Shown: in pieces, positions 4,551-29,812 of the stretch
Layout of the letters: each line of letters starts with the position of its first letter
Position numbering within the stretch: position 1 is the first letter of the stretch
Source: an uncultured Candidatus Saccharimonadales bacterium
GTDB lineage: Bacteria; Patescibacteriota; Saccharimonadia; UBA4664
Direction: 5' to 3'
NCBI GenBank assembly: GCA_964467655.1
Contig: CAYXSN010000004.1
Location: 19,906-83,905, forward strand
Length of the DNA: 64,000 nt
The notes under the pieces: model-generated
What the model saw: only the letters and a program-made list of their open reading frames with translations
What the model was told of the DNA's origin: nothing
The model's database searches: none
Position numbers and translations under genes: made by a program

Positions 4551-4578
4551 AATATCCTCAAGTAGCCACCACGTAGAA

Positions 4579-4608
4579 CGCCCAGATCCCCCTCAAGGGA
4601 TCCGGGCG
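4579..4608 (+). repeat. repeat family R1, copy 2 (cgcccagatccccctcaagggatccgggcg)
   Basis: Differs from the 2639..2668 copy at one base. Same palindromic hairpin. Confidence 0.7.
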
Positions 4609-7097: not shown

Positions 7098-7394
7098 CTA
7101 GGCTTCGAGCTTGACTAACCGGTAGCTATGGTTGGTCACGGCATCCTTGATAATACCCAGCTCGCTCTCGATTTGTTCGAAACGTTCGTCGATTTGCTCG
7201 AAGCGCTGGTCGATCTGTTCGAAACGTTCGTCGATTTGGTCGAAGCGCTCATCCATCTGGGCAAACCGGTCATCTATCGCCAAAAACTGCTCGGCGCAAG
7301 CTGTGGCCAGATTATTGATATCGCCTTGAATTGCCTGAAACCGCGGTTCGAGCGCTTCTTTGATGAGATTGATATCGGTAGGAGTGAGAGCCAT
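7098..7394 (-). CDS. small coiled-coil protein with tandem heptad repeats (DERFEQI x5)
   Basis: Internal ATG at 7394 (MALTPTD). The longer listed ORF overlaps the promoter region. The DNA carries 42-bp tandem repeats at 7176..7259. Confidence 0.55.
   Translation of the reverse strand: MALTPTDINLIKEALEPRFQAIQGDINNLATACAEQFLAIDDRFAQMDERFDQIDERFEQIDQRFEQIDERFEQIESELGIIKDAVTNHSYRLVKLEA
7176..7259. repeat. tandem 42-bp repeat x2 (ttcgaaacgttcgtcgatttgNtcgaagcgctNNtcNatctg), with an underlying 21-nt period
   Basis: Seen directly. It encodes the DERFxQI heptads of the 7098..7394 gene. Confidence 0.85.
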
Positions 7395-7486
7395 AGCGTA
7401 ACCTTTCTGAAAGCTTATTGTAGCAATATTGTTACCAACATTATACCGTACAAAAGCCGTATGTGCCAGATACGGGCTGCACCATT

Positions 7487-10400
7487 TTATAACCGCACAA
7501 TCCGCCGAGCTGGTTTGCTTGCACGAGGCGATGCGCCGCCCTGGCTCTTCGGCCGGGTGCCGCCGCTCCCCCGTCGTCGGCGCCAGTGTCGCCAACCTGT
7601 CATGCCCAAGTAGCCCAGACACCCGGCGAGGGTGAGGCCGCTGATGATGAGACCAACATAAAACCAACGCTGCGGTGTAAACTCGGCCACCAGCTCCAGA
7701 TCGTAGGTGCCGTCGGGATTGGCGTGGCAGAGGTTTTGTTGTTTGCAGAGCTTGTCGACGTCGATGTACCAACCGTTGGCAAAGTCGTTGAGCTTGAAGT
7801 GGTCGCTATCGGCGATGGCGTCGGGTTTGGCCCAGGGGACCCAGCTGTTGATGCCCTGAACTTTGCCGTTATTGATTTCGAGGCGCCATTTCGAAAAGTA
7901 GTTTTGGTTCATGGCTAGATAAAATGGCTTTTCTGCCGACTTGACGCTGATACTATGCTTTACCGGACTAGCCGTGTGATGCTCTACCGATTTTGGCATC
8001 GAGGTAATGGTGGGACTATCAGATAACAGAACGTATTTGCCCGTGATGTTTGGCAGCCGGTCTAGCTTCATATCGCTGTATTCAACAACATTTACTTTGC
8101 CTGATTGGGGCTCATAGGCATACAAATATATCGTTGCGCTTGTGGCGCCAGCAGGTGCTTTGAACTTGATTGATGCCTGCGTACTCCCGCCGCTCTGTTC
8201 TGACCCTTTTAACCGATCCGACAGGTATGTTCCGGCCGGGTCATTGAAGCCAATATAGTAGCCAGCCGCAGTGTCACTTGAGGGCTTGTACTCAAAGTCG
8301 AGCATGTAGTCTCCCGAATCGACGACACTTACGTTTGTATTGGCACAGGCAATGTGATTGCGCGACGTGAGCTTAACCAACGAGCCGGGTCCGCGTTTGT
8401 CGACTACCAGACTAATGTCTGAGCGCTCGTCGGACGCACTACAATCGACTACCTTTTGGGGCCAATCATTCAGGTATCGCCTTTCGAAATTATTGGGAGT
8501 TCCGACATATTCAGCATTACTGACTTGTGTGTTGCCTATCGCCTTTTTAACCACCTGGTCGGCAGCGATGAGCTTGACTGCTTGGCTCTCGATAACTTCA
8601 TATACCGAAACATTGGCATAGCGCGCCACATTTGTCTTATCGATATCAGTCCCAGAAAACGCATACAAGAAGAAGTTCGAAGCATCGACATTTGCTGGGG
8701 TGGTCACGATCTTAGAGTAACGGTGCCATGAGTCATCGGCGGTGTTGGTCGACCAGCTACTATTTATCTCGCTGCCTTTACCCGCATAGATGGCATACCC
8801 GATCTTGGAGTGACTTGGACTGGCATAGTCAAAACTGATCAGGTATTGTTTGCCGCTTTGCAACGTAACGCCAGTGCGAGTACATGCAATGTGTCCCTTG
8901 GCGACTAATTCCAGTGCCTTCGTGGCTTGCTTGGCGTCCTTATCGAGGAGCCGCATGCTCAACTCTGCCCGCGAGCTTTCAATGGCACAGTCTTCCACTT
9001 TGGGTTGCCAGAGGCCCCTACTGAAATCGCCGTTTTGTATCATATTTTCATCACGTGCCGAGATTACTTTTGCCGTTGTCGCTCCTTGGCGGTTGGCAAT
9101 CTCGACGGGATTATCTGAGCTGATCGGCGTATAGCTGTTGTTGGCTTCAACGAAGTAGCGTCTCTGTGGGCGCCGCTCGATTGATGTGGTTTCGTATTTC
9201 TGCTGATCTTGCCTAAAAGGTGTGGTGCCATCGAGGGTTAGCAGGCCTTCATCATGGGCAGAGATGGTGATTCTTGTAGCATCGCTCACGGCGCGGATGA
9301 CAGGAGCGCTGGCAGTCTTGTACAGCGTGGCCGGCTGACTGTCGGTGGCAACCACCGGCTGGTCGTGAATTCTACCTGAAATCGGATCGATATTGGCGGT
9401 GGTTACGTTTGCAAATAGTGGCTCAATATGAGCTGTTGGCATCTTTACGTTATCGGTCGTGTAGTAATAATTTGGCTTGGCCAAGGTTGCTGTCACAAAT
9501 TCATTGACTGCTTTAAAATTATTGCGTCCCGTAAAGCTATACAGATTGTCGGTAACTGAAATGAATTCCTTGGGTTGTGGGTCGATCAGTTCATAGACCG
9601 CCAGATTGGGCGTGTCCATCTTTTGCTTGAAATGGCCGGATTTTTGGATGCCGTTTTGGAGATCATGAATGCTCAAGGGCGATTTACCGTAGGCATGCGC
9701 CCAATCGTAGTTACTGTCCTTGCGCACCACAACGTATTTGATATTACGTCTGGCGAGGTTGGCCGTCTGGACGTCTGTAGCAGTAAAATCGGCTTCAACG
9801 TCGTAATTGAACTTATCAATGGTGGCACCGCCGATATCAGTTGAAATGATGGACGTGCCCGATAGTAGCCTCAAGATGTCGTTGCCAATATAACCTTCTT
9901 TTCCATCGCCCCACTTACTCGATATCCAGGCTGTGTGTTGCAGCGGCAAGGACAGGGTTAGGGCATGAGCATCGGCCTTGAGAAAATCCGCTACTTGATA
10001 GTAGTCTTGTGGTATTGCTATCTGGGCGGCTGGTCTAATGCCATTGTTTGAATTAAAGATCTGGCCGGTCCAAACAGGGAATCCCAGCACCATAATGATG
10101 AGCGCTGCAACCGAGCGATACCATAACGCCTTGGCGCTACTTACCCTCAGTGGGATCGAAAAAGCCAAGAATAAGGTTAGTAGGTAGCCGAGGGCAACAA
10201 TAATGCCGAGTTTTTCGTAGGCCGCCCGGAACGCCAAAAATGGTACCGGAAATGTCTGGAATAGGAATACAAAGAAGCCGCCGAAGGGTTCGTGCGAGCC
10301 TTTGGCTAGGAAACTACCAACCAATACCATAGCTACTGCCAGTATGACCAGCCGCCAAGCTTTGCGGAGGATGTTTTGGTTGAGTAGTACAACAATAAGA

Positions 10401-11389
10401 GCAAGCGGAAAAATAAACGTTAATATCTTGAATGGTGATGCAATGAATAAATCCGCCCAGGGAAACCAGCGGCCGCCAATTTTGTCGGATAGACTGTAAT
10501 AGCCGTTGAGCGTTAGGACATTTAAGAACGAGGCGTTACTACTAATGACATTGAGTATTGAGAACGAGCCATCCAGGTTTCCGCCGCCCGTGGATTTGGC
10601 TGTGCTATCGGCAACATTGAAGAATTGCGGCAGCAAATACCACAGATTTGTAGATATCCAGACCACAATACCTGTTGCCATGAGGAGTGCGAATCGCCGC
10701 AGCGGCATATCAACTAACGCCAACAGCGATACGCCACCGAGAATGCCGATCATGATAAAGAGGAATGATAAATTCGTGAGCGCTACAGATACAAACCCGG
10801 CCGTTACAAACGATAGTGCGATTACATACGCAATCCGTCCAGTATCAAGGAATTTCAACTGAAGCCAGATGAGCAATGGCAGAGCCGCATAAAAAATGTA
10901 CAGAAATATGATCATCCGCCAGCCATTGATCGCAATGTACAAATTCGACATGTAAAACAGTGCTGGTACGGTTAGCGCCCATGTATTCCTGGTGAGGCTG
11001 TATTTGGTTTGCAGATATTCCAGCAGTACAATGGCACTCCAACCTGTTACTACGAGGACTCCAAAAAAGAATAGTGCCTGCGACGCCACAGCGTTCAAGC
11101 CAACCAATTGAAATATCCCGATGAGCACAAAGAGCGGCACAATGGCATAACCGGTGGCATCGATAATGCCGCCACTATATTGAGGCTTCCAACCAAACGA
11201 AAAGTTGTGGGCATGCTCTAAAGGATTGCCAATAGACCACGTACTATCGGCATAAAACAGTAGCCGCCCGCTTGAGTACCACATACCGATCGTTATCAGT
11301 GCTGCTAACGCGACAATGGCGTATGGCAGCCATCGCTGATTATTGAGCCACTTATGCATGCGCGCCCCCAAGTTGTTCAATAACTTCAC
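7487..11389 (-). CDS. giant membrane glycosyltransferase-like protein: N-terminal multi-TM GT-C-like domain, large extracytoplasmic carbohydrate-binding-like domain, C-terminal TM anchor. Architecture resembles arabinofuranosyltransferase AftD (DUF3367)
   Basis: 1300 aa with about 12-14 N-terminal TM helices and a C-terminal TM plus Arg-rich tail. It sits in an operon with GT2/GT2/GT4 genes. The family assignment is inferred from architecture. Confidence 0.5.
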   Translation of the reverse strand: MKLLNNLGARMHKWLNNQRWLPYAIVALAALITIGMWYSSGRLLFYADSTWSIGNPLEHAHNFSFGWKPQYSGGIIDATGYAIVPLFVLIGIFQLVGLNAVASQALFFFGVLVVTGWSAIVLLEYLQTKYSLTRNTWALTVPALFYMSNLYIAINGWRMIIFLYIFYAALPLLIWLQLKFLDTGRIAYVIALSFVTAGFVSVALTNLSFLFIMIGILGGVSLLALVDMPLRRFALLMATGIVVWISTNLWYLLPQFFNVADSTAKSTGGGNLDGSFSILNVISSNASFLNVLTLNGYYSLSDKIGGRWFPWADLFIASPFKILTFIFPLALIVVLLNQNILRKAWRLVILAVAMVLVGSFLAKGSHEPFGGFFVFLFQTFPVPFLAFRAAYEKLGIIVALGYLLTLFLAFSIPLRVSSAKALWYRSVAALIIMVLGFPVWTGQIFNSNNGIRPAAQIAIPQDYYQVADFLKADAHALTLSLPLQHTAWISSKWGDGKEGYIGNDILRLLSGTSIISTDIGGATIDKFNYDVEADFTATDVQTANLARRNIKYVVVRKDSNYDWAHAYGKSPLSIHDLQNGIQKSGHFKQKMDTPNLAVYELIDPQPKEFISVTDNLYSFTGRNNFKAVNEFVTATLAKPNYYYTTDNVKMPTAHIEPLFANVTTANIDPISGRIHDQPVVATDSQPATLYKTASAPVIRAVSDATRITISAHDEGLLTLDGTTPFRQDQQKYETTSIERRPQRRYFVEANNSYTPISSDNPVEIANRQGATTAKVISARDENMIQNGDFSRGLWQPKVEDCAIESSRAELSMRLLDKDAKQATKALELVAKGHIACTRTGVTLQSGKQYLISFDYASPSHSKIGYAIYAGKGSEINSSWSTNTADDSWHRYSKIVTTPANVDASNFFLYAFSGTDIDKTNVARYANVSVYEVIESQAVKLIAADQVVKKAIGNTQVSNAEYVGTPNNFERRYLNDWPQKVVDCSASDERSDISLVVDKRGPGSLVKLTSRNHIACANTNVSVVDSGDYMLDFEYKPSSDTAAGYYIGFNDPAGTYLSDRLKGSEQSGGSTQASIKFKAPAGATSATIYLYAYEPQSGKVNVVEYSDMKLDRLPNITGKYVLLSDSPTITSMPKSVEHHTASPVKHSISVKSAEKPFYLAMNQNYFSKWRLEINNGKVQGINSWVPWAKPDAIADSDHFKLNDFANGWYIDVDKLCKQQNLCHANPDGTYDLELVAEFTPQRWFYVGLIISGLTLAGCLGYLGMTGWRHWRRRRGSGGTRPKSQGGASPRASKPARRIVRL

Positions 11390-12464
11390 TCAAGGCACGG
11401 GCTTGTTGCCGTACATCGAAATATTTGTTTGTGCGTTTGGCATTGTTCGCCTGGACCGATGCCAGATGTCGAGGCTCGCTCAGCAAGCTCTCAACGGCGG
11501 CGATGACGGCTTTTGAATCGTTTTGAGCGACCACAATATTGTCTGCGCCCACGATTTCAGGTAAGGCTCCCGCATCGGTGGTGATTACTGCCAAACCGCA
11601 CGCCATAGCCTCGACGAAGCTAAAACCAAACTGTTCTGAGGTGATCTTGAGTTTGTACTTGTACATGTCGCGGCAGGGCATGACGAGGATGCCGTGCTGC
11701 TGGAGTACGCTTGGCAATTGCTCATTTGGTAGCGGCCCAAGATATGAAAATTGTGGGTATTTATCGACATAGCTTTTGATTGTATCTGCATACGGGCCCT
11801 TGCCGATGACGGTCATTTTGATATCTGGATTCTTCGGCAATACGGCATCGGCAACTTCGAGGAAGATATCGATGCCTTTGTGAGGCTTAAGACCGCCAAC
11901 AAAAATGAGATTTCGATTGGTTTGTGAGTGTTTGACACTTTGAAAAAGATGCAGGTCTATGCCCGGATACACTACCTTCGCCTTATCTGGAGGTGCGCCC
12001 AGAGCCAGTACACAATCGCGAGCTTTGTTTGATACGCACACAAATAGATCGGCGTGTTTGATGACATAGAGCCGATTGCCTATGTGTGAGGGTAGATAGT
12101 GTAGTGGATGGCGCGGTATGAGCTCGTATACCAGTACCACGACCTTTTTGCCGTGCTTGTGAGCATACTCGGTGAACTGTTTGGCTATGGATGAAAAAAC
12201 TTCGAGGACAATGATAACATCGACATCTGCGAGGTACCGTTCGAAGCCAGTATAGGTTACCAATTTGGCAGTTGAATGGTACTTACCAGCGAATAGGCGG
12301 CTTTCCTGGCTCTGTACCTGGCAGTATTCGACATTGTCGGGCTTTGTGGTGGGGTAGGATGCAAAGTCGATATCGAGAAACTTGATTTTCTCAACCGGCA
12401 TGCGCGAAAACCAGTGGTACTCGTAGTTGGGACGACTATCGTGTGAGACGTAAGCGATTTTCAT
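11352..12464 (-). CDS. glycosyltransferase family 4 (GT4)
   Basis: 370 aa with GT4 motifs (GGLKPHKGID; EQFGFSFVEAMACGLAVITTDAGALPE = E-x7-E). Translationally coupled with its neighbours. Confidence 0.8.
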   Translation of the reverse strand: MKIAYVSHDSRPNYEYHWFSRMPVEKIKFLDIDFASYPTTKPDNVEYCQVQSQESRLFAGKYHSTAKLVTYTGFERYLADVDVIIVLEVFSSIAKQFTEYAHKHGKKVVVLVYELIPRHPLHYLPSHIGNRLYVIKHADLFVCVSNKARDCVLALGAPPDKAKVVYPGIDLHLFQSVKHSQTNRNLIFVGGLKPHKGIDIFLEVADAVLPKNPDIKMTVIGKGPYADTIKSYVDKYPQFSYLGPLPNEQLPSVLQQHGILVMPCRDMYKYKLKITSEQFGFSFVEAMACGLAVITTDAGALPEIVGADNIVVAQNDSKAVIAAVESLLSEPRHLASVQANNAKRTNKYFDVRQQARALSEVIEQLGGAHA

Positions 12465-13306
12465 TTCCGATGAGCCTTACCTGACCGCTTTAATACTTCC
12501 GGTTCGCCGCGGAGCATGCCGGTGGCTCCGGCCAGATACTTTACAAACATGTAGTACCAAAACGCCGTGAAGAGCTTGGGTTGTTTGATGAGGTCTTTTT
12601 GGAGTTGGATGAATTGGGGTCGGAAGAAGTTGAATTGTTTGACACTGCGAACGCCGGCTTTTTGGTTGTATTTGCCTATGGTTCGGCCGTAATAGTGGAA
12701 CTTACGCCAGACATCGCCGATGGTTTTGGGCTCGCCGATGTGGGTTTCCACAGCGTCAACGTGAGCCCATTTGTAGCCAGCGTCCACCATACGGTTGTGT
12801 AGATCGAAATCCTCACCGGCCACGAGTGTTTCATCGAAGCCACCTAAGGCATCAAAGACCGAGCGCTTGAAGAAGCGGGCCCCCACGATGGAAGTGTCGT
12901 TTTTGTAGGTTTCACGTTCCAGGTAGCGTACATGAGCCCAGATACTGTCGCCCTGGGAACGGTTATGTACCGCAAGTGCATCATAGCCTTCGGCCATTTT
13001 GGCGACACATTTGGCGACCACATCGGGCTCAAGTACAAATTCGAGGCCGATCCGGTACATGTACTCCCCTGTGGCTTTGGTGACGCCATAGTTGAACTGA
13101 GTTGAGCGCTCGGGTCCGAGCTGGTAGAACTGGTCGGCATATTGTTTGACAATATCTGGTGTGCCGTCAGTCGAAAAGTTGTCTACGACGATTAACTCAA
13201 TGTGCGGGTACGTTTGCGCTTTGACGCTCTGGAGGCTGGCGTGCGCGGCTGGAGCGTTGTTTTTGCAGGCTATAACAATTGAGACTAATGGTTGTTTGGC
13301 TGCCAT
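12461..13306 (-). CDS. glycosyltransferase family 2 (GT2)
   Basis: Start chosen at ATG 13306 (MAAKQPLVSIVIACKN). GT2 signature IELIVVDNFSTDGT and GEDFDLHNR. Paralog of the upstream GT2. Confidence 0.75.
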   Translation of the reverse strand: MAAKQPLVSIVIACKNNAPAAHASLQSVKAQTYPHIELIVVDNFSTDGTPDIVKQYADQFYQLGPERSTQFNYGVTKATGEYMYRIGLEFVLEPDVVAKCVAKMAEGYDALAVHNRSQGDSIWAHVRYLERETYKNDTSIVGARFFKRSVFDALGGFDETLVAGEDFDLHNRMVDAGYKWAHVDAVETHIGEPKTIGDVWRKFHYYGRTIGKYNQKAGVRSVKQFNFFRPQFIQLQKDLIKQPKLFTAFWYYMFVKYLAGATGMLRGEPEVLKRSGKAHRK

Positions 13307-14124
13307 TTGTTCCCTCGAAATTTGGCCAGCACAAAGCCGGCTCCCCCGAAGCTGAATTTGAGTAGCAGATACCCAGCTAACTGCAGGCTCTTGACCGGAT
13401 TTTGCATGAGGCGTTTGCCACGACAATGTGCGAATGCCATCAAGTATTTGAGCTGCCCATTGAACTCGCCGGGATTGGCTTTTTGGTATCGCACCGAGTC
13501 TTTGCCGTAGTGATACATTTTTACCAGATGCGGCCAGAGCTTTGTGGGCTCACCCAAGTGCAGGGCCTCGGCGTCGATGAAGGCGGTCTTGTAGCCGGCT
13601 TTGTTGAGCTTGTTTTGAAAGTCGTAATCTTCGCCGGCGGTAATGGCTTCGTTGAAGCCGCCAATGGCCTGATAGACAGATTTCTTGATGAAACGGGCCG
13701 AGGAGTGCTGAAGGTCGTATTTGTACATGTCGACCTCAAACTTTCTGATGCGGGCAATCCAGCTAATGCTGGGATCGGGTGAGTTGTGTACCACCACAGC
13801 GTCGGCGCCCTCAGTGGCCCGCCTGATGCATTGATCGATGACGGCGGGATCGAGCACGAAATCGGCATCCACTTTGTAGACATACTCGCCTGTGGCTTTG
13901 GTGACACCAAAGTTTACTTGGGCCGAGCGCTCCGGCCCGTGGTTGTACACGTGCTGAGTGTAGCGCTGGGCGATGGTTTTGGTGGTGTCGGTGGAATCGC
14001 GGTCGACCACAATGATTTCGATGGGTTTGTACGTTTGATCGGCGATTGATTTGAGGCAGGCCTCAATTGTGGCGGCGCTATTGCGAGTGGGAATGATGAC
14101 TGAGACAAGCTGGTTACTGGGCAT
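13285..14124 (-). CDS. glycosyltransferase family 2 (GT2)
   Basis: 279 aa with VSVIIPTRNS...IEIIVVDRDSTDTT and GEDYDFQNK. First gene of the GT2-GT2-GT4-AftD-like operon. Confidence 0.8.
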   Translation of the reverse strand: MPSNQLVSVIIPTRNSAATIEACLKSIADQTYKPIEIIVVDRDSTDTTKTIAQRYTQHVYNHGPERSAQVNFGVTKATGEYVYKVDADFVLDPAVIDQCIRRATEGADAVVVHNSPDPSISWIARIRKFEVDMYKYDLQHSSARFIKKSVYQAIGGFNEAITAGEDYDFQNKLNKAGYKTAFIDAEALHLGEPTKLWPHLVKMYHYGKDSVRYQKANPGEFNGQLKYLMAFAHCRGKRLMQNPVKSLQLAGYLLLKFSFGGAGFVLAKFRGNKWQPNNH

Positions 14125-14448
14125 ACCGCTTTAGTTTATCAGATCTGGTGGGAGGTGGCAAAACGGGATGGAGGAACTTTCGGAGAAAGAATATGTCTCA
14201 CCGAGACTCTCGCTCGTACCCCTCAAAAATACATCCATGAAGGGTTGTGATCTGTGACAGCAACGCTGACATTGGTTTGAGGGATGTGGCTACGGGTATC
14301 TTCTTCATCAAGCATGGCCCGGGGTTTGGTGACCAGATCTCCTATCAGTGGGTAGCTGGCTAAAAAGTAATAAATGCTCGATTGAGCCCAGCCTCGATAT
14401 TGCGGCCTTTCAGTCCGATCGACTCCGAAACGTAAGGCGTTTTGCATG

Positions 14449-14489
14449 CCCGTCCCGAGTGCACTCACTACGAGTGTGCTCGGGACGGG
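14449..14489. repeat. 41-nt palindromic hairpin repeat R2, copy 1 (cccgtcccgagtgcactcactacgagtgtgctcgggacggg), followed by a T-run
   Basis: 18-bp stem with G-U wobbles. A near-identical copy is at 17768..17808. Confidence 0.8.
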
Positions 14490-14554
14490 CGGTTTTTTTG
14501 ATGATTATAAAAAGGTTGGGGGGGCCGCTCACAGTGTGAGCGGCCCCCGGGAGG

Positions 14555-14824
14555 TCAGTAGTCGTCTTCGGGTTGGGGGTCGGCGGGGTAGGCTGCCCCG
14601 CCGACGAACAGGACGGCTCCCAGGCCAGCAATGACGCCGGCCAGCAGCTCCCGGTATGGGTGGCCGCTACAGATCGGCCAGATCAATATTGCGAGCCCGA
14701 TGAGCGCCGGGCCACCCACAAGCCCTGTGTCGCGCGGGCCCTCTACACTGCCTAGCGCGTTAGCGCAGAAGAACAGGACGACGAATCCGAGGATGCTGAT
14801 GAGTGCGGCCAAGTGAGTACCCAT
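14555..14824 (-). CDS. small membrane protein (2-3 TM), hypothetical
   Basis: 89 aa and hydrophobic. It is followed on the minus strand by hairpin ggggggccgctcacaGTGTGAGCGGCCCCC plus a T-run (14515..14550). Confidence 0.5.
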   Translation of the reverse strand: MGTHLAALISILGFVVLFFCANALGSVEGPRDTGLVGGPALIGLAILIWPICSGHPYRELLAGVIAGLGAVLFVGGAAYPADPQPEDDY

Positions 14825-14988
14825 GGTGGCTCCTTGATACTAGGAAAATGCGGCTGTTGACCTTCTATTATTATATCACGTTTTCTACTTTATGTAAATA
14901 TATTGCTCTGTTGAACTTTTTATTTTATAACTTGGCACGCTTCAGGTGCCAGTTGGTCTCTCCCTAGTGCATTGGCCTGCATGAGGCT

Positions 14989-15036
14989 CTCACGAGTGAT
15001 TGGTCAAACGGTCTCCACTTGTGGGGGCCGTTTGCA
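14989..15036. repeat. 48-nt direct repeat R3, copy 1 (ctcacgagtgattggtcaaacggtctccacttgtgggggccgtttgcat)
   Basis: Second copy at 16832..16880 with 3 mismatches. Contains an imperfect hairpin aaacggtctccac/gtgggggccgttt. Confidence 0.8.
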
Positions 15037-15083
15037 TATCTGGGTATAAGTTGATCCCCCGACCTGGCTGGCCGGGGGATGTG

Positions 15084-15893
15084 TCAAGAGGCTTGCTCTT
15101 GGTAGAAGAGTTGGCGGTCTTTGCGGTAGATACGCGCATAGACCCATGGCGGATAGTGACGGCAGATCTGTCGGCGGGCCGACAGCCTGTTCTGGGCAAC
15201 CGACGTGTAATAGGTGTGCAGTTCACGCCGAACCCAGTTTGGTCGATACCCTAAACGTTCGAAAATCTGATTTTCGGTCAACCAGCCATTTGCGGATGGC
15301 ACCTCGGGTTTGTGCCCCAGAGACTTGAAGTCGGGCACGTAATAGTGATCGGTGATCTTGTTGGTACCCGAAGCCCGAAGCCGTCGAGACTGGAGATTGT
15401 GCTCGTTGATGTGGCGGCGGATCTTGTATTTTGACCAGCCGGTCAATTGGCAGATCTCGCCTTCGGTGAGCCAGTCGATCTCGGCGAATGCTGGTAGATA
15501 CGCCTTGAGAGCTTGGTATGATTCGGGTGAGATAGCGGCCACGGGGCGACCATTGCGGCCGCGACGCTGCTCCACAGGGCCAAATTCAGGGTGGAGCTTG
15601 AGGTGCCGGTAGAACGTGGTCTCGATGATGCCGCAGTCGAGGCAGGCTTGGTACACGCTCACCCATCGCCTCAACCGGGGATACTGGCGCAAATTGGCAG
15701 TGTCGGCCTTGATTTGTTCGTAACATTCTTGCCTGTAGAACCTGGGCCGTTGTCCACCGCCAGTGCCGGCTAAGATGTAGTCTTTGGCATATGGACTGCG
15801 CCTGATTCTGGTCCGCACGAAGTCTCTGGGAAGTCCGAGGGACCGAGCCATACGCGCGGCACTCCAGATATAGGGGGTAGGTGCATTGCTCAT
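15084..15893 (-). CDS. DNA-binding protein with four tandem HTH-like repeats (excisionase/MerR-type HTH motif W-L-T-E-x-E-I-x-x-L-G-x6-RR)
   Basis: 269 aa. The four repeat segments were aligned by eye (YIWSAARMARSLGLPRDFVRTRI / YQACLDCGIIETTFYRHLKL / DWLTEGEICQLTGWSKYKIRRHI / GWLTENQIFERLGYRPNWVRREL). It is flanked by R3 direct repeats. Confidence 0.5.
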   Translation of the reverse strand: MSNAPTPYIWSAARMARSLGLPRDFVRTRIRRSPYAKDYILAGTGGGQRPRFYRQECYEQIKADTANLRQYPRLRRWVSVYQACLDCGIIETTFYRHLKLHPEFGPVEQRRGRNGRPVAAISPESYQALKAYLPAFAEIDWLTEGEICQLTGWSKYKIRRHINEHNLQSRRLRASGTNKITDHYYVPDFKSLGHKPEVPSANGWLTENQIFERLGYRPNWVRRELHTYYTSVAQNRLSARRQICRHYPPWVYARIYRKDRQLFYQEQAS

Positions 15894-16068
15894 GGTTAAC
15901 CTCTGTCGGGTAGAGTTCTGGCAACTGCCCCACTTGTACCTGATTTGAGTTGTTTGTGCAAGATTGGCGTACTGAGATGGCTATTTTTGTTTACAAAATG
16001 TTATTTATGTTGTATAATCTAGCCACTGTACTTTGATTCCGCTCCCTTGCCAACCGAGAGAGGCAATT

Positions 16069-16842
16069 ATGGATCTGCTACTTCGTAGTCTGCTGACGGC
16101 AGCAGTCCTGACAGCTGTGATGGCCACGCTCAGCGTATTAGTGCTGCATGCGTGTATGCACTACCGCACGTCGCCTATTGCCCGGACGACAATCAAGAGC
16201 ATTTTTCAGGACTGGCTGGTTTTTGTGCCATGCTGGGGCGTCGCATTGGGATTGCGCTCCGTCGCCCATTTTAACATCATTGTATGTGCTTGGTGGGGCG
16301 TGTTGGCGTTCATCATCGAGATACACCTGCTGGAGAAGTACATCAACAGCAGGTGGGCGACGACGTCGAGTATTCGTACCCCGACGCCCGACGAGCTCGC
16401 AGGTCTCGCGGAGCAACCGGATGAGGCCTGGCAGCAGATCCTGAACGATGCCCTCCTGTATCTACAGAGCGTTCAGCCAGCTGGGCTCAGGGCGGTTGTG
16501 CAGGCTCGAGCCAGGCTCAAGAAGTCATCAACCCGGGCTGAGCTGAGCGGCCTGCATGATGACAGCCTGCCAGTCAGATTCTTGAACTGGTGTCAGGACC
16601 TGCTCAATGCTGTCTTCGAGGATGAATTCGCAGACCGGTTCGACCCGAATCTGTTGTCGGTGGCGAGTATCTATGCGCCCCAAATACTGAACGACGCATA
16701 TGGCGACAAGTACGACAACGATCGGCGCATTGTTCGATCGTTTGCCCAGGCGCATGGCCTGGAGGCGATCGCTCATGCATTTTACACCATTTGGTATGCC
16801 CACATTGGCAGACCGCGCTACATCTCCGGCCCTCACGAGTGA
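16069..16842 (+). CDS. membrane-anchored hypothetical protein
   Basis: ATG 16069 with a gagagagg RBS. TM helices, then a soluble domain. Its 3' end runs into R3 copy 2. Confidence 0.5.
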   Translation: MDLLLRSLLTAAVLTAVMATLSVLVLHACMHYRTSPIARTTIKSIFQDWLVFVPCWGVALGLRSVAHFNIIVCAWWGVLAFIIEIHLLEKYINSRWATTSSIRTPTPDELAGLAEQPDEAWQQILNDALLYLQSVQPAGLRAVVQARARLKKSSTRAELSGLHDDSLPVRFLNWCQDLLNAVFEDEFADRFDPNLLSVASIYAPQILNDAYGDKYDNDRRIVRSFAQAHGLEAIAHAFYTIWYAHIGRPRYISGPHE

Positions 16843-16880
16843 TTGACCAAGCGGTCTCCACTTGTGGGGGCCGTTTGCAT
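16832..16880. repeat. direct repeat R3, copy 2
   Basis: cctcacgagtgattgaccaagcggtctccacttgtgggggccgtttgcat. Confidence 0.8.
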
Positions 16881-16990
16881 TTTGAGGAGCGGGCGGTTTT
16901 TATAATTGCTTATACATACGAAATGTTGTAGTGCGGCTTGCGTTCCTTGATAGGTTGGCCCGCAAACTCCGTCGAAAGGCAGGTCCAGAT

Positions 16991-17221
16991 ATGATGAACC
17001 ACGCGATTGACAGCACCGGGGCGCTCGTAGCAGCAGCCCGAGCCTTCGAGCAGGCTGCTGCCGACTGTGTGAGGGCGGCATCCCTGGTGGTAGCCGCCCA
17101 TGATGAGACTGGCTTGGTCGCCGATTTTGAGGCTAAGCTTCGGGTGGCCGCTGCGTTGGCAGAGCAAGCGCAAGCCAAATTGACTGCCGGCAACCGTTGC
17201 TTGACCGAATTCGAGGCGTGA
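16991..17221 (+). CDS. small alpha-helical protein, hypothetical
   Basis: 77 aa. ATG 16991 (MMNHAIDS) with an aaagg RBS. Confidence 0.35.
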   Translation: MMNHAIDSTGALVAAARAFEQAAADCVRAASLVVAAHDETGLVADFEAKLRVAAALAEQAQAKLTAGNRCLTEFEA

Positions 17222-17526
17222 ATGCAGCCCGAGCTTGAGGCGACATCATGTGGGCATGTGTATAATGATCAGCTACCGTCGTTTGACTCGTAGTAGGGAT
17301 CATTGTAGACTAACCCCGTCCCGTTTCGGCATGATCTTCAGTCAGCTTCACCGGTTGAAGATGCATCTGGAGGGAGACGAATAGATGGGACAGAACGCCC
17401 AACGAATTCTCGATGGAATGGAGGCCTGGGTACGCAGACTCCGCCCCACCGATACGGCGGAGTCAGAGGCAGCCCAACAATTGCTGGGCTCACTGCAGCA
17501 AACAAGGCAACGATTGGAGTCTGAAG

Positions 17527-17760
17527 ATGTCCAAGCTGATGAGGATCGTTAGTTTGGTATTGGTGGGATTGGGTGTACTGCTCACCTCGGAGTGGTGTAA
17601 CCCGAACCCCATCACCGATCCAAAGCGGTTCGCACCGCAGCCGACCAGCCCGTCCACCCAGTGGATCCTGACCGCCATTGTGGTGCTGTTTGCGATCGGT
17701 ATGGTGGTAGTGGTTCGGACTCTCAGGTCCGAGCCCCGAGCGACGGTCGCCGCCCGCTAG
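17527..17760 (+). CDS. small membrane protein (2 TM), hypothetical
   Basis: ATG 17527 with a ggag RBS. It ends 8 nt before R2 copy 2, which can serve as its terminator. Confidence 0.45.
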   Translation: MSKLMRIVSLVLVGLGVLLTSEWCNPNPITDPKRFAPQPTSPSTQWILTAIVVLFAIGMVVVVRTLRSEPRATVAAR

Positions 17761-17767
17761 TTGAATG

Positions 17768-17808
17768 CCCGTCTCGGGTGCACTCACTACGAGTGTACTC
17801 GGGACGGG
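17768..17808. repeat. hairpin repeat R2, copy 2 (cccgtctcgggtgcactcactacgagtgtactcgggacggg), followed by ccttgcttttt
   Basis: 3 mismatches compared with copy 1. Confidence 0.8.
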
Positions 17809-17869
17809 CCTTGCTTTTTGTAGTGTTCCAATGTTTAATATAGCAGTTCGAAGTACCATTGACAGATAC

Positions 17870-18904
17870 ATGATCTCTCTTCAGGAGGAACCTGTGAATC
17901 CAGCATGGATAGTTCTGGCTAGCGGCCTGGCGCTGATAGTTCTCGTCCTGGGTATTGGCATCACTCTGGCAGTGCGCGCCGACCGACGCAGACAAGCCGT
18001 CGCTGAGCGGGCGATAGATTGGGAAAGTGAGCGTAAGGCCTGGACTGCTCTGCTTGATATAGCTGCGCGGCACCTGAACCTCTCGCTCAGTGAGCCTGAT
18101 GATGAGACGACCGCCGCCCGCCAGGAGATCGCTGATATCTTGCGGGCAGATTCTCCTGAATCGCCTGAGGGTATGCAGCGAGCGTTTCGTCTCAAAGAAG
18201 CCGCGCGAAGTTTGGGTGTAAATGTTGCAGCAATCCGGTCGCGGGCCGAAGACGATGCCACTGTTGCTCGACTCAGGCTTGAGTTGGCAGCCGTAATCCG
18301 GACGTCGCTCGATTCTTCGGCACCGGCTGCTGCACGACTCACAGCCCTCGTAACCATCTTGACCAGGCTTGCGCAGCATAAGCCTGATGTTGTGGCCCGG
18401 GTGCTGCGTGACTTTGGCCTGCCGGCTGGCGATGACGATCTGCTCGGGCAGCTCCGACAGCGCTATCTTGAGATCCGATCGCAGTGCCTCGAAGATCTCT
18501 TGGTCCAAGGCTGGAACGCCGCCAATGACGACGCCTTGAGCAAGTGCCTGGCCCAGATCCTCGATTTGTTGCAACGCGATAGCTGGACAATTAGACGCCT
18601 GCAGCTGGATGACAACCAGTTGACGACGTACTACCAACTCCTGGCTAGGCTGCCAAAACGTACCGACGATCAGCTCATCGACCGAGACCGATTGATGACG
18701 CTGGCGACGGTGCTATTCGCAACCGACACTGAGGCGGGCGCTGAATGGCGCATCGCCTGCGACGTGCTTGCGCTCCAGATTCTGGTGCGTCACACCGCGG
18801 CAGAACTAGGCATGGGAGCTGTTCAGCACGCTCGGCTCCTGCACACACTGCAGTCCCGATTGTCCGAACAGCGGATTGCGTGGCTCGAGTCCGATCAGAA
18901 ATAA
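17870..18904 (+). CDS. membrane-anchored alpha-helical hypothetical protein
   Basis: ATG 17870 (MISLQEEP). A TTGACA-like -35 lies upstream. One TM helix, then an approximately 300-aa helical domain rich in Ala/Leu/Arg/Asp. Confidence 0.5.
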   Translation: MISLQEEPVNPAWIVLASGLALIVLVLGIGITLAVRADRRRQAVAERAIDWESERKAWTALLDIAARHLNLSLSEPDDETTAARQEIADILRADSPESPEGMQRAFRLKEAARSLGVNVAAIRSRAEDDATVARLRLELAAVIRTSLDSSAPAAARLTALVTILTRLAQHKPDVVARVLRDFGLPAGDDDLLGQLRQRYLEIRSQCLEDLLVQGWNAANDDALSKCLAQILDLLQRDSWTIRRLQLDDNQLTTYYQLLARLPKRTDDQLIDRDRLMTLATVLFATDTEAGAEWRIACDVLALQILVRHTAAELGMGAVQHARLLHTLQSRLSEQRIAWLESDQK

Positions 18905-19083
18905 ACTCCCGCCACTGAGTGACTCGCTTGGTCCCGAGGGGAGGCGCCGATTGACGGCCCTCCCCTCAGGGCTGTCAATCTTGATAATTTTGAGCCTAAG
19001 CTGTATAGTGCAATGATTCATAGTTCTATTAACATCTAGAAGCTTTCGACATACCCTTCCCTCCACTGAAACGGAGTCATGTC

Positions 19084-19653
19084 ATGGAGCGACCAGTGGC
19101 AATTCACACAGCGCCAGTAACCGCACCGGATATCGGCCAGATTCTCGATGCTCTATCGAGTCGGTTGTCACTCACGCCGCCTCCCAGATATGCCCGGCAA
19201 CTGCGACCCGCGTTTGCGGCTCTCACCGAGCTCATGACACGACTGCGCGGCGTCGGGCGCACCACCCCAATGAAGCGGGTCCGACTCAGCGATGTGGTCC
19301 GGCAGGACCGCTTGCCGGCTGATGTGCCACCATTATTTGGTCTGCACGCACCAGACTGGTATGCCGTCAATATCGGGCCCGTCATGCTGTCGCAACATCT
19401 TGTGGTCACTGCAGTTGAGCAATTGACAATCGCCCGAACCCCTTACGATCGTGTAGGTGTGGCCGTTGACCCAAGCGGTCAGCACCTGAGCGCATACCAT
19501 CACTTCACACGTGACGGCAGCTCGTCCGCCAACTGTGAGCTTGTGCCGGGCTTCGGTTTTGTCGATTCCGGAGACGACACACCGGACATGCACATAATCA
19601 TCAAGGCTGTTACCGAAGTCTGGCGCGGCCTGAACACCATCCCTCCATCCTGA
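19084..19653 (+). CDS. hypothetical protein (operon gene 1 of 3)
   Basis: 189 aa. RBS aaacggagt. A similar leader sequence precedes gene 2. Confidence 0.55.
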   Translation: MERPVAIHTAPVTAPDIGQILDALSSRLSLTPPPRYARQLRPAFAALTELMTRLRGVGRTTPMKRVRLSDVVRQDRLPADVPPLFGLHAPDWYAVNIGPVMLSQHLVVTAVEQLTIARTPYDRVGVAVDPSGQHLSAYHHFTRDGSSSANCELVPGFGFVDSGDDTPDMHIIIKAVTEVWRGLNTIPPS

Positions 19654-19666
19654 AACGGAGTACGTC

Positions 19667-20143
19667 ATGACCATCACTGAGTGCCCGGCAGACCTCGCAC
19701 GCCTCATCCGCGATGATCCTGCCGTGGTCGGCAGCCTGGGCACACACCTGGTGCCAGCGGCGATGGCCGCAGCCTTGAGCCCGGTCAACCCGGCGGATCC
19801 TCGGGGCCAGGTTTGGCAATTGTCAGTGCCGCTGAGGCCCCAGGGAGCCAGACTGTCGACCGTTTTTGCGGCTGATGGTTGGGTGGGCGCCCAGGTTGTC
19901 GCGGTGGCCGCAGACCGTGGTATGCCTGAGGTGTGCCTGACTGGGTTTCAGCCTCTGAGCGGCGGCCAATGCATTGTGTTCCACAGTGTCAACGGCGTCT
20001 GGACGCAGTTGCTCCCCGCAGCACCGGCGGGCTCCCGCGCACTGTCGTTATGGCCGTTCTACGCAGCTGAGATAGCGGCCTTGGAGCCGTTGGTCGCGGA
20101 GCTGGCGGCTCAGCTAGCACAACCGGCGACGGATCGGCAATGA
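19667..20143 (+). CDS. hypothetical protein (operon gene 2 of 3)
   Basis: 158 aa. Preceded by cctccatcctgaaacggagtacgtc. Confidence 0.55.
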   Translation: MTITECPADLARLIRDDPAVVGSLGTHLVPAAMAAALSPVNPADPRGQVWQLSVPLRPQGARLSTVFAADGWVGAQVVAVAADRGMPEVCLTGFQPLSGGQCIVFHSVNGVWTQLLPAAPAGSRALSLWPFYAAEIAALEPLVAELAAQLAQPATDRQ

Positions 20144-20655
20144 AGCCCGAGGATGCGGCGGCGGCTCGTGAGATCCTGGAAAAACTCCTGGCAAACACTG
20201 GCGACTGGTCTGGTATTGCCGGTACTCACATGCATAGTTTGGCCGCGGTTCCGGCTTGGCTAGAGACTGTCGCCCAGCGACTGCTCACCGACACCAGCCT
20301 GGCGCCAACTGCCATCCAGATGAAGGAAACACATCATCTGGTGCCACTGTGTATCGGCCGCGAGGCTGGTCTGCCAGAAGAAACGGACTCCCTGGTCCTC
20401 CTGCAGCGTGGGCGCTGGCGCTACTGGTTTACCGATTGCCTGATGGCAGTCGAATTACCGGTACTGGATCCAGATTTGGGTGATCCGCAGCGGATGACCA
20501 TCATCTGGAGCACGCGACTGCACTGCCTACTGGTGGTCGCCTGGAATGAGAACCGGGCCCATGTGCGCCTCTCCAGCCATGTGCCACCGGCAGGTATGCA
20601 CCGTGTGGAGCCCAGTATTGCCAGAATGCTCGCACGACTGAGTGACTGTGAATGA
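20140..20655 (+). CDS. hypothetical protein (operon gene 3 of 3)
   Basis: 171 aa. ATGA overlap with gene 2. Confidence 0.55.
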   Translation: MKPEDAAAAREILEKLLANTGDWSGIAGTHMHSLAAVPAWLETVAQRLLTDTSLAPTAIQMKETHHLVPLCIGREAGLPEETDSLVLLQRGRWRYWFTDCLMAVELPVLDPDLGDPQRMTIIWSTRLHCLLVVAWNENRAHVRLSSHVPPAGMHRVEPSIARMLARLSDCE

Positions 20656-26505: not shown

Positions 26506-26580
26506 GGTCCCATCGTCTAGCGGTTAGGACAACGGATTTTCATTCCGTCAACCGGGGTTCGACTCCCCGTGGGACTACCA
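26506..26580 (+). tRNA. tRNA-Glu(TTC): tRNA-Glu (anticodon TTC)
   Basis: 75-nt cloverleaf read directly. Acceptor stem GGTCCCA/TGGGACT, anticodon loop TTTTCAT with TTC, T-arm GGGGTTCGACTCCCC, 3' CCA encoded. It begins with GTCCCATCGTCTAGCGGTTAGGAC, typical of tRNA-Glu. Confidence 0.9.
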
Positions 26581-26640
26581 TTGCACTTATGCTTGAGATT
26601 AAGCTCGCATATCTTATAATTAAGTTATCTGAGCTTTGGT

Positions 26641-26678
26641 AGGCGCACAAAAAGACCCCGAAAGGGGGCCTTTTTGTT
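26641..26678. terminator. bidirectional intrinsic terminator aaaaagaccccgaaagggggcctttttgtt
   Basis: A GC hairpin flanked by an A-run and a T-run, downstream of the tRNA. An identical copy is at 29771..29812. Confidence 0.8.
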
Positions 26679-26818: not shown

Positions 26819-27157
26819 CTACTCTTTTTGTCTGCGTTCCTCAAACCATTGTTGCGGCCGGTTGAATTGCCAGGGGTCGCGGACGTTACACTTTTGAACT
26901 TCTAACTTTTCCCAAACTTTTCCGACGAGGTAGGGCTCTTTATCTAGCCACGTATGCAGCTCTTTCTCCGACGGGAAGTCCATGAGCAGCATCGACCCGA
27001 TCATTTGATTATTGGTATCCCATAAGGCGGCGCCGTACCACATATTGCCAGATTGACGAAGCTCCTCGCCCATTTCGATGTGAGCAGGCCGGGCGGCTAG
27101 GCGACGAGCCGGAGCTTCGAGATCGGTACCGTCGCGACCGATGATGAGATATTGCAT
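26819..27157 (-). CDS. YciI-like (Dabb-type) small protein
   Basis: 112 aa. MQYLIIGRDGTD...PYLVGKVWEKLEV matches the YciI-like family pattern. Confidence 0.55.
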   Translation of the reverse strand: MQYLIIGRDGTDLEAPARRLAARPAHIEMGEELRQSGNMWYGAALWDTNNQMIGSMLLMDFPSEKELHTWLDKEPYLVGKVWEKLEVQKCNVRDPWQFNRPQQWFEERRQKE

Positions 27158-27180
27158 GCGATTTATCCGATTAGTGGCTC

Positions 27181-27244
27181 GATTATAACTTGAGGCGCCA
27201 CCATCTGACGACCTCAGCGGCCACTTCGTTCCAAATCGAAGGCA
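27181..27244 (-). promoter_or_regulatory. sigma70-like promoter module P1 (minus strand: TCGTCA-N18-TATAAT), 5' of the YciI-like gene
   Basis: The plus strand shows attata at 27182..27187 and tgacga at 27205..27210. A 65-nt near-duplicate lies at 29636..29702. Confidence 0.6.
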
Positions 27245-27358
27245 GTAAGCCTACAAGGAATTATTTGACTTTATCAAGCCCCAATCATATACGCCCCAAA
27301 TCTGTTTTCGAACGAGTAACCCGCCGCAGCATATTGGCAACGGCGGGTTTGGTTTTGG

Positions 27359-29635: not shown

Positions 29636-29702
29636 GTGATTATAGCCTTAGTCGCCACCATCTGACAACCTCAGTGGCCACTTCGTTCCCAAATGCAGGC
29701 TG
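29636..29702 (-). promoter_or_regulatory. promoter module P2 (minus strand: TTGTCA-N18-TATAAT), near-duplicate of P1
   Basis: Plus-strand attata at 29638..29643 and tgacaa at 29663..29668. The -10 lies 8 nt upstream of the ATG, so the transcript is nearly leaderless. Confidence 0.6.
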
Positions 29703-29707
29703 CAGTG

Positions 29708-29812
29708 CTACCAATACACTTATGCTTATTATAGGACATCGTAAATTCTAGAATAGAATTATCCGAGCTTTGGTAGGCGCACAAAAAGACCCCGAAAGGG
29801 GCCTTTTTGTTT
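29708..29812. repeat. duplicate of the tRNA-Glu 3' end plus downstream flank and terminator (copy b)
   Basis: ctaccaatacacttatgctt ... atccgagctttggtaggcgcacaaaaagaccccgaaaggggcctttttgtt, compared with 26575..26678. Confidence 0.8.

Follow-up and report, generated by a model that had tools for sequence, protein, structure and literature searches.

Winged helix-turn-helix (wHTH) domains of the small MerR-like/Xis fold are found in BldC, RdfS, the Xis proteins of lambda and Tn916, and P2 Cox. Proteins of the BldC and Xis types are generally single-domain chains of 55-90 aa that associate as non-covalent oligomers. In particular, BldC oligomerises head-to-tail on direct repeats with strong distortion of the DNA (PMC5859096), and RdfS, which assembles into helical filaments, reads long DNA regions with little sequence information (PMC11963761). 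The present work deals with a gene encoding four units of this kind in a single chain (4xwHTH) and with two nested pairs of repeats, R3 and, outside it, R2, that bracket it on contig CAYXSN010000004.1 of an uncultured Candidatus Saccharimonadales bacterium; the whole stretch of 64 kb that was analysed is called the window. With reasonable probability, R2 and R3 are plus-strand terminator hairpins, one copy of each orphaned by the loss of gene cassettes, and the 4xwHTH protein is a resident, conserved putative regulator.

Each unit of the 4xwHTH protein has the same small fold as the factors named above; in contrast to their single-domain chains, the members of its family carry from four to at least nine fused units, and, unlike Xis-type factors, the protein has neither a partner integrase nor an att site. 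The best match among solved structures is TraN of the Enterococcus plasmid pIP501 (PDB 4p0z, 4pm3), likewise a single chain of tandem excisionase/MerR-like wHTH units, described in the PDB title as binding double-stranded DNA. The alignment extends over about 125 columns, corresponding to two units; however, TraN has two units and not four, shares 14-16% identity with no relationship at the sequence level, and is an accessory protein of plasmid type IV secretion, whereas the 4xwHTH gene is chromosomal and conjugation genes are not nearby. Several tandem HTH units per chain that read adjacent stretches of DNA are also present in the eukaryotic Myb repeats (R1R2R3); the Myb fold is unrelated (three-helix instead of the winged MerR/Xis type) and belongs to another kingdom, and the comparison is an analogy only.

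The nearest known systems to R2 and R3 are intrinsic terminators, including the bidirectional ones located between convergent genes. Like these, R2 and R3 are GC-rich hairpins with T-rich tracts at the 3' ends of genes and strand-specific G-U pairing. They differ in their unusually long stems (19 bp in R2; a 47-nt extended hairpin in R3), in the near-identical copies common to unrelated neighbouring genes, in the contribution of R3 to the coding sequence of one gene family, whose final four codons it supplies, and in an R3 sequence that is invariant across diverged lineages.

Repeats R2 and R3 as probable terminator hairpins

An earlier note on this DNA had described R3 direct repeats and, outside them, R2 hairpin repeats, and both pairs are real. 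The four copies are the following.

14448..14499, plus strand: R2a, putative orphan intrinsic terminator with a stem of 19-20 bp and a 5-nt loop, then GGTTTTTTT; found by the terminator scan; located at the end of a gene in the relatives L010 and L022
14985..15037, plus strand: R3a, copy of the R3 extended hairpin, orphaned here; its 5' arm and inner stem have 3 substitutions
16828..16880, plus strand: R3b, putative terminator of the 257-aa gene, a 47-nt extended hairpin, then UUUGCAUUUU
17767..17821, plus strand: R2b, putative terminator of the 55-aa and 77-aa genes, a 19-bp stem, then CTTGCTTTTTG; found by the terminator scan

The two R3 copies extend over 53 nt (14985-15037 and 16828-16880) with 92% identity and share an identical 29-nt core, while the R2 copies extend over 58 nt (14442-14499 and 17761-17818) with 86% identity, each containing a hairpin with a 19-bp stem (14448-14490 and 17767-17809). 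Both cores have exactly two matches in the window, all of them at the HTH locus, against zero expected from shuffled sequences. All four copies are in direct orientation, the inverted match found for R2 being merely its own palindrome, so that inversion of the segment, as in the invertible element suggested by the earlier note, is impossible.

At the RNA level R3 is a single 47-nt extended hairpin in which GGCCCUCACGAGUG pairs with CACUUGUGGGGGCC, followed by the tail UUUGCAUUUU; a conserved 5' box is present alongside the obvious hairpin because both belong to this one structure. R3b folds into a 15-bp outer stem with G-U pairs and an inner GACC/GGUC stem. The folding energies on the plus and minus strands are, respectively, -35.2 and -29.3 kcal/mol for R3b (z -5.95), -26.5 and -15.7 for R3a, -42.0 and -35.6 for R2a, and -37.7 and -25.8 for R2b; over the folded hairpins z ranges from -3.9 to -9 and the energies from -26.5 to -42 kcal/mol. 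The better folding of the plus strand in all four copies is due to the presence of several G-U pairs, and the three differences between R2a and R2b leave plus-strand pairing intact through wobble. Such a strand asymmetry appears to mark selection at the RNA level on plus-strand transcripts.

The 257-aa gene ends within R3b, which takes in its stop and the four codons before it, and R2b lies 7 nt past the stop codon of the 77-aa gene. In the window no plus-strand gene precedes R3a and R2a; they follow a gene on the same strand in L018 (R3a) and in L010 and L022 (R2a). The terminator scan flags R2a and R2b on the plus strand only. In both families a stable GC-rich hairpin precedes a U tract, although that of R3 is interrupted, and R2 and R3 may be considered two kinds of Rho-independent-type terminator hairpin with a presumed termination activity. 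On the minus strand, R3a might still form the outer part of a bidirectional stop downstream of the 4xwHTH gene.

The copy number bears on a different explanation, namely that R2 and R3 are dispersed elements of the REP (repetitive extragenic palindromic) or MITE (miniature inverted-repeat transposable element) kind, unrelated to the local genes. Both are indeed palindromic, GC-rich and intergenic, and several other hairpin pairs are present in the window, but each of these families is local and different from the others, and R2 and R3 have just two copies each in 64 kb, all at the locus. Among 185,579 species-representative genomes of GTDB, a 22-nt R3 core has one exact match, which is the same locus in CP064960.1, a circular genome of 1,322,297 bp assigned to Patescibacteria, Saccharimonadia, o__UBA4664, g__UBA5169 (PMC8012365, supplementary file 5). 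The genome-wide search for R3 proposed by the earlier note thus gives one exact match in this 1.32-Mb genome. No match to the core was found in viral contigs, and a metagenome scan with the 5' half of R3 gave one true match (L025), another copy of the same locus. A dispersed origin is accordingly very unlikely. Exact 24-nt matches to the 5' half were also met in L023 (918-941) and L024 (6360-6383), inside an 835-aa open reading frame (ORF) of an unrelated soil metagenome contig; they were judged to be due to chance as no hairpin follows. Searches of Rfam, with gathering and E-value thresholds, returned only the tRNA-Glu plus a chance miRNA match on R2b.

Relatives and probable origin of the orphan copies

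The exact 269-aa protein is encoded on 11 contigs, all collinear with the window, and only two homologous clusters, P0001 (92% identity) and P0002 (53%), were found among 5.8 billion proteins; the corresponding lineages are indicated below by these values. A common layout is shared by three lineages: MFS, flippase, the glycosyltransferases (GT) GT2 and GT4, variable ORFans, the 4xwHTH gene, variable ORFans and GT genes. In a comparison of the 15.0-16.9 kb segment for presence or absence, the 4xwHTH gene is syntenic in all three, and neither an empty site nor an excised junction occurs in at least 15 independent metagenome contigs, since all those carrying the 89-aa gene or R3b are collinear. 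Of the two circumstances that the earlier note had named as fatal to its proposal, synteny of the segment in relatives is thus found, whereas a high-copy, REP-type distribution is not, either of R2 in the window or of R3 in the window and the species-representative genomes.

The genes that precede the orphan copies are recognizable in these relatives.

14411..14447, plus strand: 37-nt stub, the 3' end of a plus-strand gene lost here; homology to L010 and L022 begins at 14411

The gene ending just before R2a is intact in L010 (178 aa) and L022 (219 aa). On the R3a side, L018 of the 53% lineage has a convergent gene, intact and no shorter than 204 aa (...DWRNPGHLTTMTSW*), that stops immediately before a perfect R3, L010 and L022 of the 92% lineage have a frameshifted remnant of it, and in the window it is wholly gone. 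The homology between the window and L010 or L022 breaks at R2a, R3a and R3b; the 76-aa gene just 3' of R3b is missing from L010, as is the 89-aa gene, which is present in L022. These genes and breakpoints indicate that the nested direct repeats reflect gain and loss of cassettes at terminator modules and not the ends of one element. R3b would end the 257-aa membrane-protein gene and R2b the small 55-aa and 77-aa genes, while R3a and R2a would have been orphaned by deletion of the plus-strand genes that they end in relatives, a loss that yields the nested-repeat picture without a mobile element. Duplication, together with deletion between short repeats, may be the way in which small gene cassettes come and go at such hairpins. 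In L022, which seems to preserve an intermediate arrangement, a second copy of the R2 3' arm together with the 14520-14548 hairpin is present, plus a 20-mer resembling the R3 5' arm; a deletion between this 20-mer and R3a, both still present in L022, could have produced the R3a of the window and would account for its three substitutions. A part of repeat-mediated rearrangement in shaping the locus is therefore retained (the earlier note had thought of a repeat-mediated duplication), in contrast to a compact mobile or invertible element.

R3 is 96-100% identical across all copies and lineages, while the neighbouring sequence is 66-77% identical, and the element is too invariant for a covariation test. 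The flanking GT genes have a dS (synonymous divergence) of 1.3-1.8 between the window and L010 and differ by about 31% of nucleotides from the 53% lineage. Possible causes of the invariance are a recent exchange of R3-bearing cassettes (by eye, gene X is about 90% identical between L018 and L010 in its 3' part), gene conversion between copies, or a sequence-specific ligand.

Under another proposal, the 4xwHTH protein would have its cognate site, an operator or an architectural one, in R3, in addition to or in place of the terminator function. A copy of R3 lies 50-80 nt past the 4xwHTH stop in every lineage, including the 53% lineage, which has only one R3, but the G-U asymmetry suggests that selection acts on RNA, and on the other strand than that of the HTH gene. 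The contrast in identity between R3 and its neighbours is also explicable by recent cassette exchange, and the two similar 10-bp dyads of R3, TCACGAGTGA and CCACTTGTGG, located 25 bp apart, form part of a long palindrome, whereas head-to-tail units are expected to prefer direct repeats. Moreover, R3a is mutated where the plus-strand gene is lost or broken (the window; L010, L013 and L022) and perfect where it is intact (L018), a pattern that, in a small sample, favours a role as RNA or terminator over one as HTH operator. A role of R3 as a protein site is on the whole unlikely.

An excisable or transferable cassette delimited by the R3 copies, with the 4xwHTH protein as its directionality factor and the recombinase encoded elsewhere, is highly improbable and already largely refuted. 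The 53-nt direct repeats flank exactly two genes, but R3 belongs to the coding sequence and 3' hairpin of unrelated genes, and the 53% lineage, with one R3, has the gene at the same place as all the others. The block alignable to L010 spans R3b to R3a, and the dS of the HTH gene is 0.20 where the flanking GT genes have 1.3-1.8; however, no contig contains the empty site or junction. Similarly, the units have the excisionase fold and a large serine recombinase is encoded about 10 kb away in L010, but in the window no recombinase domain was found among the called genes about 10 kb on either side, nor in ten island and ten other large window ORFs. In addition, no matches occur in viral contigs, phage genomes or plasmids, and the family forms chromosomal paralog arrays. 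The compact mobile element of the earlier note falls on the same grounds: the lack of a recombinase for about 10 kb around and of any empty site, the synteny in three lineages and the single R3 in the 53% lineage. An integron attC site was also considered and rejected, since no integrase is present and the ends of R3, GGCCCTC...GCCGTTTGCA, do not fit, by eye, the RYYYAAC ... GTTRRRY core.

The 269-aa protein

The gene and its four units, with the hairpin that follows, are located as follows.

15084..15893, minus strand: 269-aa basic protein with four tandem excisionase/MerR-type wHTH units; called as a gene in public assemblies
15702..15872, minus strand: unit 1 (residues 8-64), the most divergent; secondary structure, weak similarity to PurR-type HTH
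15498..15665, minus strand: unit 2 (residues 77-132); secondary structure, sub-threshold HTH_29 match
15318..15476, minus strand: unit 3 (residues 140-192), the nearest to a canonical excisionase HTH; HTH_17, single-unit hidden Markov model (HMM), phrog_66, mad1
15090..15287, minus strand: unit 4 (residues 203-268); family motif W-x-T...HYPPW, independent E-value (i-E) 1.4e-7
15054..15080, minus strand: the gene's own 3' hairpin, with an 11-bp stem and no T run; -22.3 kcal/mol, z -4.4

The protein has an isoelectric point of 10.06, with 45 Arg+Lys residues against 23 Asp+Glu, and a dN/dS of 0.18-0.19 that indicates purifying selection. The hairpin structure at 15054-15080 is kept in the 53% lineage via compensatory changes, as seen by comparing the window with the L018 sequences.

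The four-HTH architecture read by the earlier note is weak by sequence. Self-BLAST leaves the internal repeat undetected; in Pfam, the cut-offs of HTH_17 (PF12728; 17.1 bits, cut-off 27) and HTH_29 (22.5 bits, cut-off 28.1) are missed, and unit by unit, sub-threshold matches are limited to units 2 and 3. NCBIfam, including TIGR01764, gives no match, and the protein reaches no curated sequence threshold for an excisionase/MerR wHTH. The matches in PADLOC and PHROGs are weak and to single units (mad1 7e-5, phrog_66 7e-4) and do not indicate membership of a defence system or a phage. An HMM of the single unit, built only from the family member P0003, gives significant matches to unit 3 (i-E 3e-4) and unit 4 (1.4e-7) and weak ones to units 1 and 2.

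Structure prediction, which the earlier note had advised, bears the architecture out. AlphaFold2 gave a mediocre pLDDT (predicted local distance difference test) of 72 with three sequences and, with a 16-sequence alignment, a pLDDT of 91.2 and a pTM (predicted template modelling score) of 0.60, the model consisting of four consecutive beta-alpha-alpha-beta-beta-alpha units; the short beta strand, two-helix HTH, two-stranded wing and C-terminal helix of the fold are found four times. Foldseek against the PDB retrieves TraN (probability 0.97, E 8e-3), RacA (0.94), BldC (0.82-0.84) and pSK1 Par (0.84), all with E >= 8e-3, and further MtaN and other MerR proteins as well as P2 Cox. In BFVD, the protein is closest to phage proteins built of two or three of these units and to MerR-like or excisionase HTH proteins with one. 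The protein is indeed unusual, as the earlier note had remarked, being a fixed four-unit chain of a known DNA-binding fold.

The tandem-wHTH family

A profile search against 1.84 billion cluster representatives yields a family of 153 representatives at E <= 1e-3 and 70 at E <= 1e-10. Many members measure 260-285 aa and are collinear over the full length at 20-27% identity, which indicates that the four-unit layout is old and fixed; in fact, four is the commonest unit count with the single-unit HMM (41/142 proteins). Other members of 350-880 aa have very regular units of about 60 aa (PPAGDWLT...LGRS..WV..R...L.E.RL..NG...HYPPSELERL), and P0003 contains nine or more. Within the family, P0006 exceeds the threshold of TIGR01764 ("excisionase family DNA-binding") when its scores are summed (33.6 bits against a cut-off of 28.8). 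Neither Pfam nor NCBIfam has a dedicated model for the family, which is unnamed; a tblastn search of P0003 against phage genomes and plasmids gave no match, and a literature search for tandem HTH_17 repeat proteins gave nothing relevant. What is new here is a family without a Pfam or NCBIfam model, consisting of a fixed tandem array of an already known DNA-binding fold.

The window encodes one member. Six to seven paralogs of 351-730 aa follow the orthologous flippase-GT2-GT4 triad in a distant relative (L032, 4535-18193; JGI 3300066484), and four paralogs of 282, 265, 283 and 571 aa lie in a row in L034 (5338-9716; GCA_041743505.1). The link between the family and the polysaccharide cluster is recurrent, not universal. 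The 571-aa gene looks like two four-unit proteins fused, and among the other members P0010 has an N-terminal ResIII/DEAD helicase and P0037 reaches 4,717 aa.

Genes of the surrounding island

The locus forms the central part of an island of ORFans, genes lacking known relatives, that extends over about 14.1-20.7 kb and lies within a hypervariable flippase-GT2-GT4 surface-polysaccharide cluster of a small-genome member of Saccharimonadia (Patescibacteria), a relative of CP064960.1. The remaining features of the core are listed here.

14520..14548, minus strand: perfect hairpin of 13-14 bp, probable terminator of the 89-aa gene, directly after its stop; -30.2 kcal/mol, z -6.5
14555..14824, minus strand: 89-aa small membrane protein with three hydrophobic segments, a cassette
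15894..16068: divergent promoter region, with a plus-strand promoter TTTACA-17-TATAAT at 15990-16018
16069..16842, plus strand: 257-aa membrane protein (from ATG), its last four codons (GPHE) and stop inside R3b
16890..16906, plus strand: fragment resembling the 3' end of R2 (CGGGCGGTTTTTATAAT), directly after R3b; repeat family D8
16991..17760, plus strand: three small genes (76, 55 and 77 aa), the last with two hydrophobic segments in its product

The divergent pair between the R3 copies is as the earlier note had described it, with the 269-aa ORF on the minus strand and the 257-aa ORF on the plus strand, and the product of the latter is hydrophobic at about residues 3-31 and 64-89 in a Kyte-Doolittle scan, in agreement with the membrane protein proposed there. 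The 257-aa gene is variable: it encodes 248 aa in L010, is represented by two ORFs in L011, L014 and L022, and is replaced by an unrelated 131-aa gene in L016. In L022 (3533-4356) and the equivalents in L011 and L014, the counterpart is split into products of 112-124 aa and 150-167 aa, with a duplicated TTPSI(H/R)IATP stretch and a replaced central segment. By its sequence, the gene appears to be decaying or highly variable in part of the 92% lineage.

The intergenic region at 15894-16068 is nearly identical in the 92% lineage and unconserved in the 53% lineage; a motif upstream of the HTH gene, CCCCACTTGTAC, was considered as an operator and rejected because it is unconserved in the 53% lineage. 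The 89-aa gene has a promoter TTTACA-17-TATAAT at 14898-14870. Of the ten island ORFs, including those of 17894-20655, none but the 4xwHTH gene gave a credible match in Pfam, PHROG or PADLOC, and NCBIfam gave none for two of them. The 158-, 189-, 257- and 336-aa genes evolve fast (dN/dS about 0.3-0.37), and four island products, of 89, 77, 257 and 336 aa, have hydrophobic segments.

The left-side GT genes (window 7487-14124, L010 14211-20259) are only about 28% identical and have a lower GC content (0.48-0.50), and the flippase, GT2 and GT4 on the right side share 80-91% protein identity with the 92% lineage; this contrast seems to be the usual picture of the serotype-like variable half of a polysaccharide locus. 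At 7168-7272, where the ORFs 7098-7772 (minus strand) and 7128-7613 (plus strand) overlap, there are about five tandem copies of the 21-nt unit TCGATTTGYTCGAARCGYTSG.

Shared modules elsewhere in the window

Hairpins common to unrelated genes occur also at other places of the window. The 32-nt hairpin AACGCCCGGATCCCCCTCAAGGGATCCGGGCG is present twice with 97% identity: the copy at 2637-2668 lies just 3' of a 425-aa gene (1349-2626, plus strand) and the one at 4577-4608 about 90 nt 3' of a 406-aa gene (3270-4490, plus strand), the products of which show no similarity in BLASTP. A second nested set of direct repeats adjoins the tRNA-Glu gene (26506-26580). It includes a pair of bidirectional-terminator modules (26605-26674 and 29739-29808, 70 nt, 84% identity) and a pair of promoter-like modules (27181-27254 and 29638-29711, 74 nt, 80%) ending in TATAAT on the minus strand, which together bracket the threonyl-tRNA synthetase (ThrRS) gene and a 192-aa gene. 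Sharing of terminators or promoters between neighbours recurs in the repeat families D11, D2 and D4. Such recurrence indicates a habit of the genome that is not specific to the HTH gene. Direct repeats that bracket genes should consequently not be read here as the ends of mobile elements, since terminators and promoters are common to unrelated neighbours.

Some further observations concern the tRNA-Glu side. The left-hand copies of both pairs flank a small ORF that is YciI-like by eye (about 26850-27165, minus strand). The ThrRS (27359-28699, minus strand) is just 446 aa long and its best match, the archaeal-type PRK03991, starts from profile position 153, which implies a synthetase without the N-terminal editing region. 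In L010 (1-38; 92% lineage, corresponding to about 26.6 kb of the window) a 549-aa large serine recombinase (Resolvase and Zn_ribbon_recom) abuts the tRNA-Glu, suggesting an element integrated there in that relative; the window has no serine recombinase gene at this site.

Proposed role of the 4xwHTH protein

By analogy with the known factors, the 4xwHTH protein is most likely a single-chain version of the Xis/BldC-type DNA filament. The four linked units would lie side by side along about 40-60 bp of DNA, like a pre-assembled filament of Xis, BldC or RdfS; with all units in one chain, cooperative assembly would be unneeded and the stoichiometry fixed. DNA binding, with which the basic composition of the protein would agree, and a regulatory role are predicted; the protein could regulate the neighbouring island or polysaccharide genes, either transcriptionally or architecturally.

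Several observations sit uneasily with R2 and R3 as terminators, partly orphaned, and the 4xwHTH protein as a resident regulator. R3 is left unflagged by the simple terminator scan, its T tract (UUUGCAUUUU or UUUUGGUGU) being interrupted, and it is near-invariant although the flanking genes have dS above 1, which is more than termination alone needs. The dS of the HTH gene is far below that of its flanks, which suggests that the island core was exchanged between lineages later than the species split. No tandem DNA repeats that could form a fourfold binding site are present near the locus and no DNA target for the protein was found, the divergent promoter region being unconserved in the 53% lineage; furthermore, the paralogs of L034 are away from any polysaccharide cluster. 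Terminators, some of them orphaned, beside a resident regulator are nevertheless the probable state of the locus.

A wider reading, which is quite doubtful, joins the two parts: a group of single-chain filament binders of four to at least nine units, centred on Saccharimonadia/Patescibacteria, would read DNA over long stretches and control or physically organise the variable region of surface-glycan and ORFan cassettes, with the invariant 50-nt R3 as both cognate site and exchange joint. If the single-chain filament model of the protein is right, a hard-wired array would stand in place of the cooperative assembly of excisionase and BldC types, and how much DNA is read would depend on how many units the chain has. 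The family occurs in episymbiotic bacteria with small genomes, most regulators of which are unknown, and lies beside cell-surface genes, that is, at the interface with host and phage.

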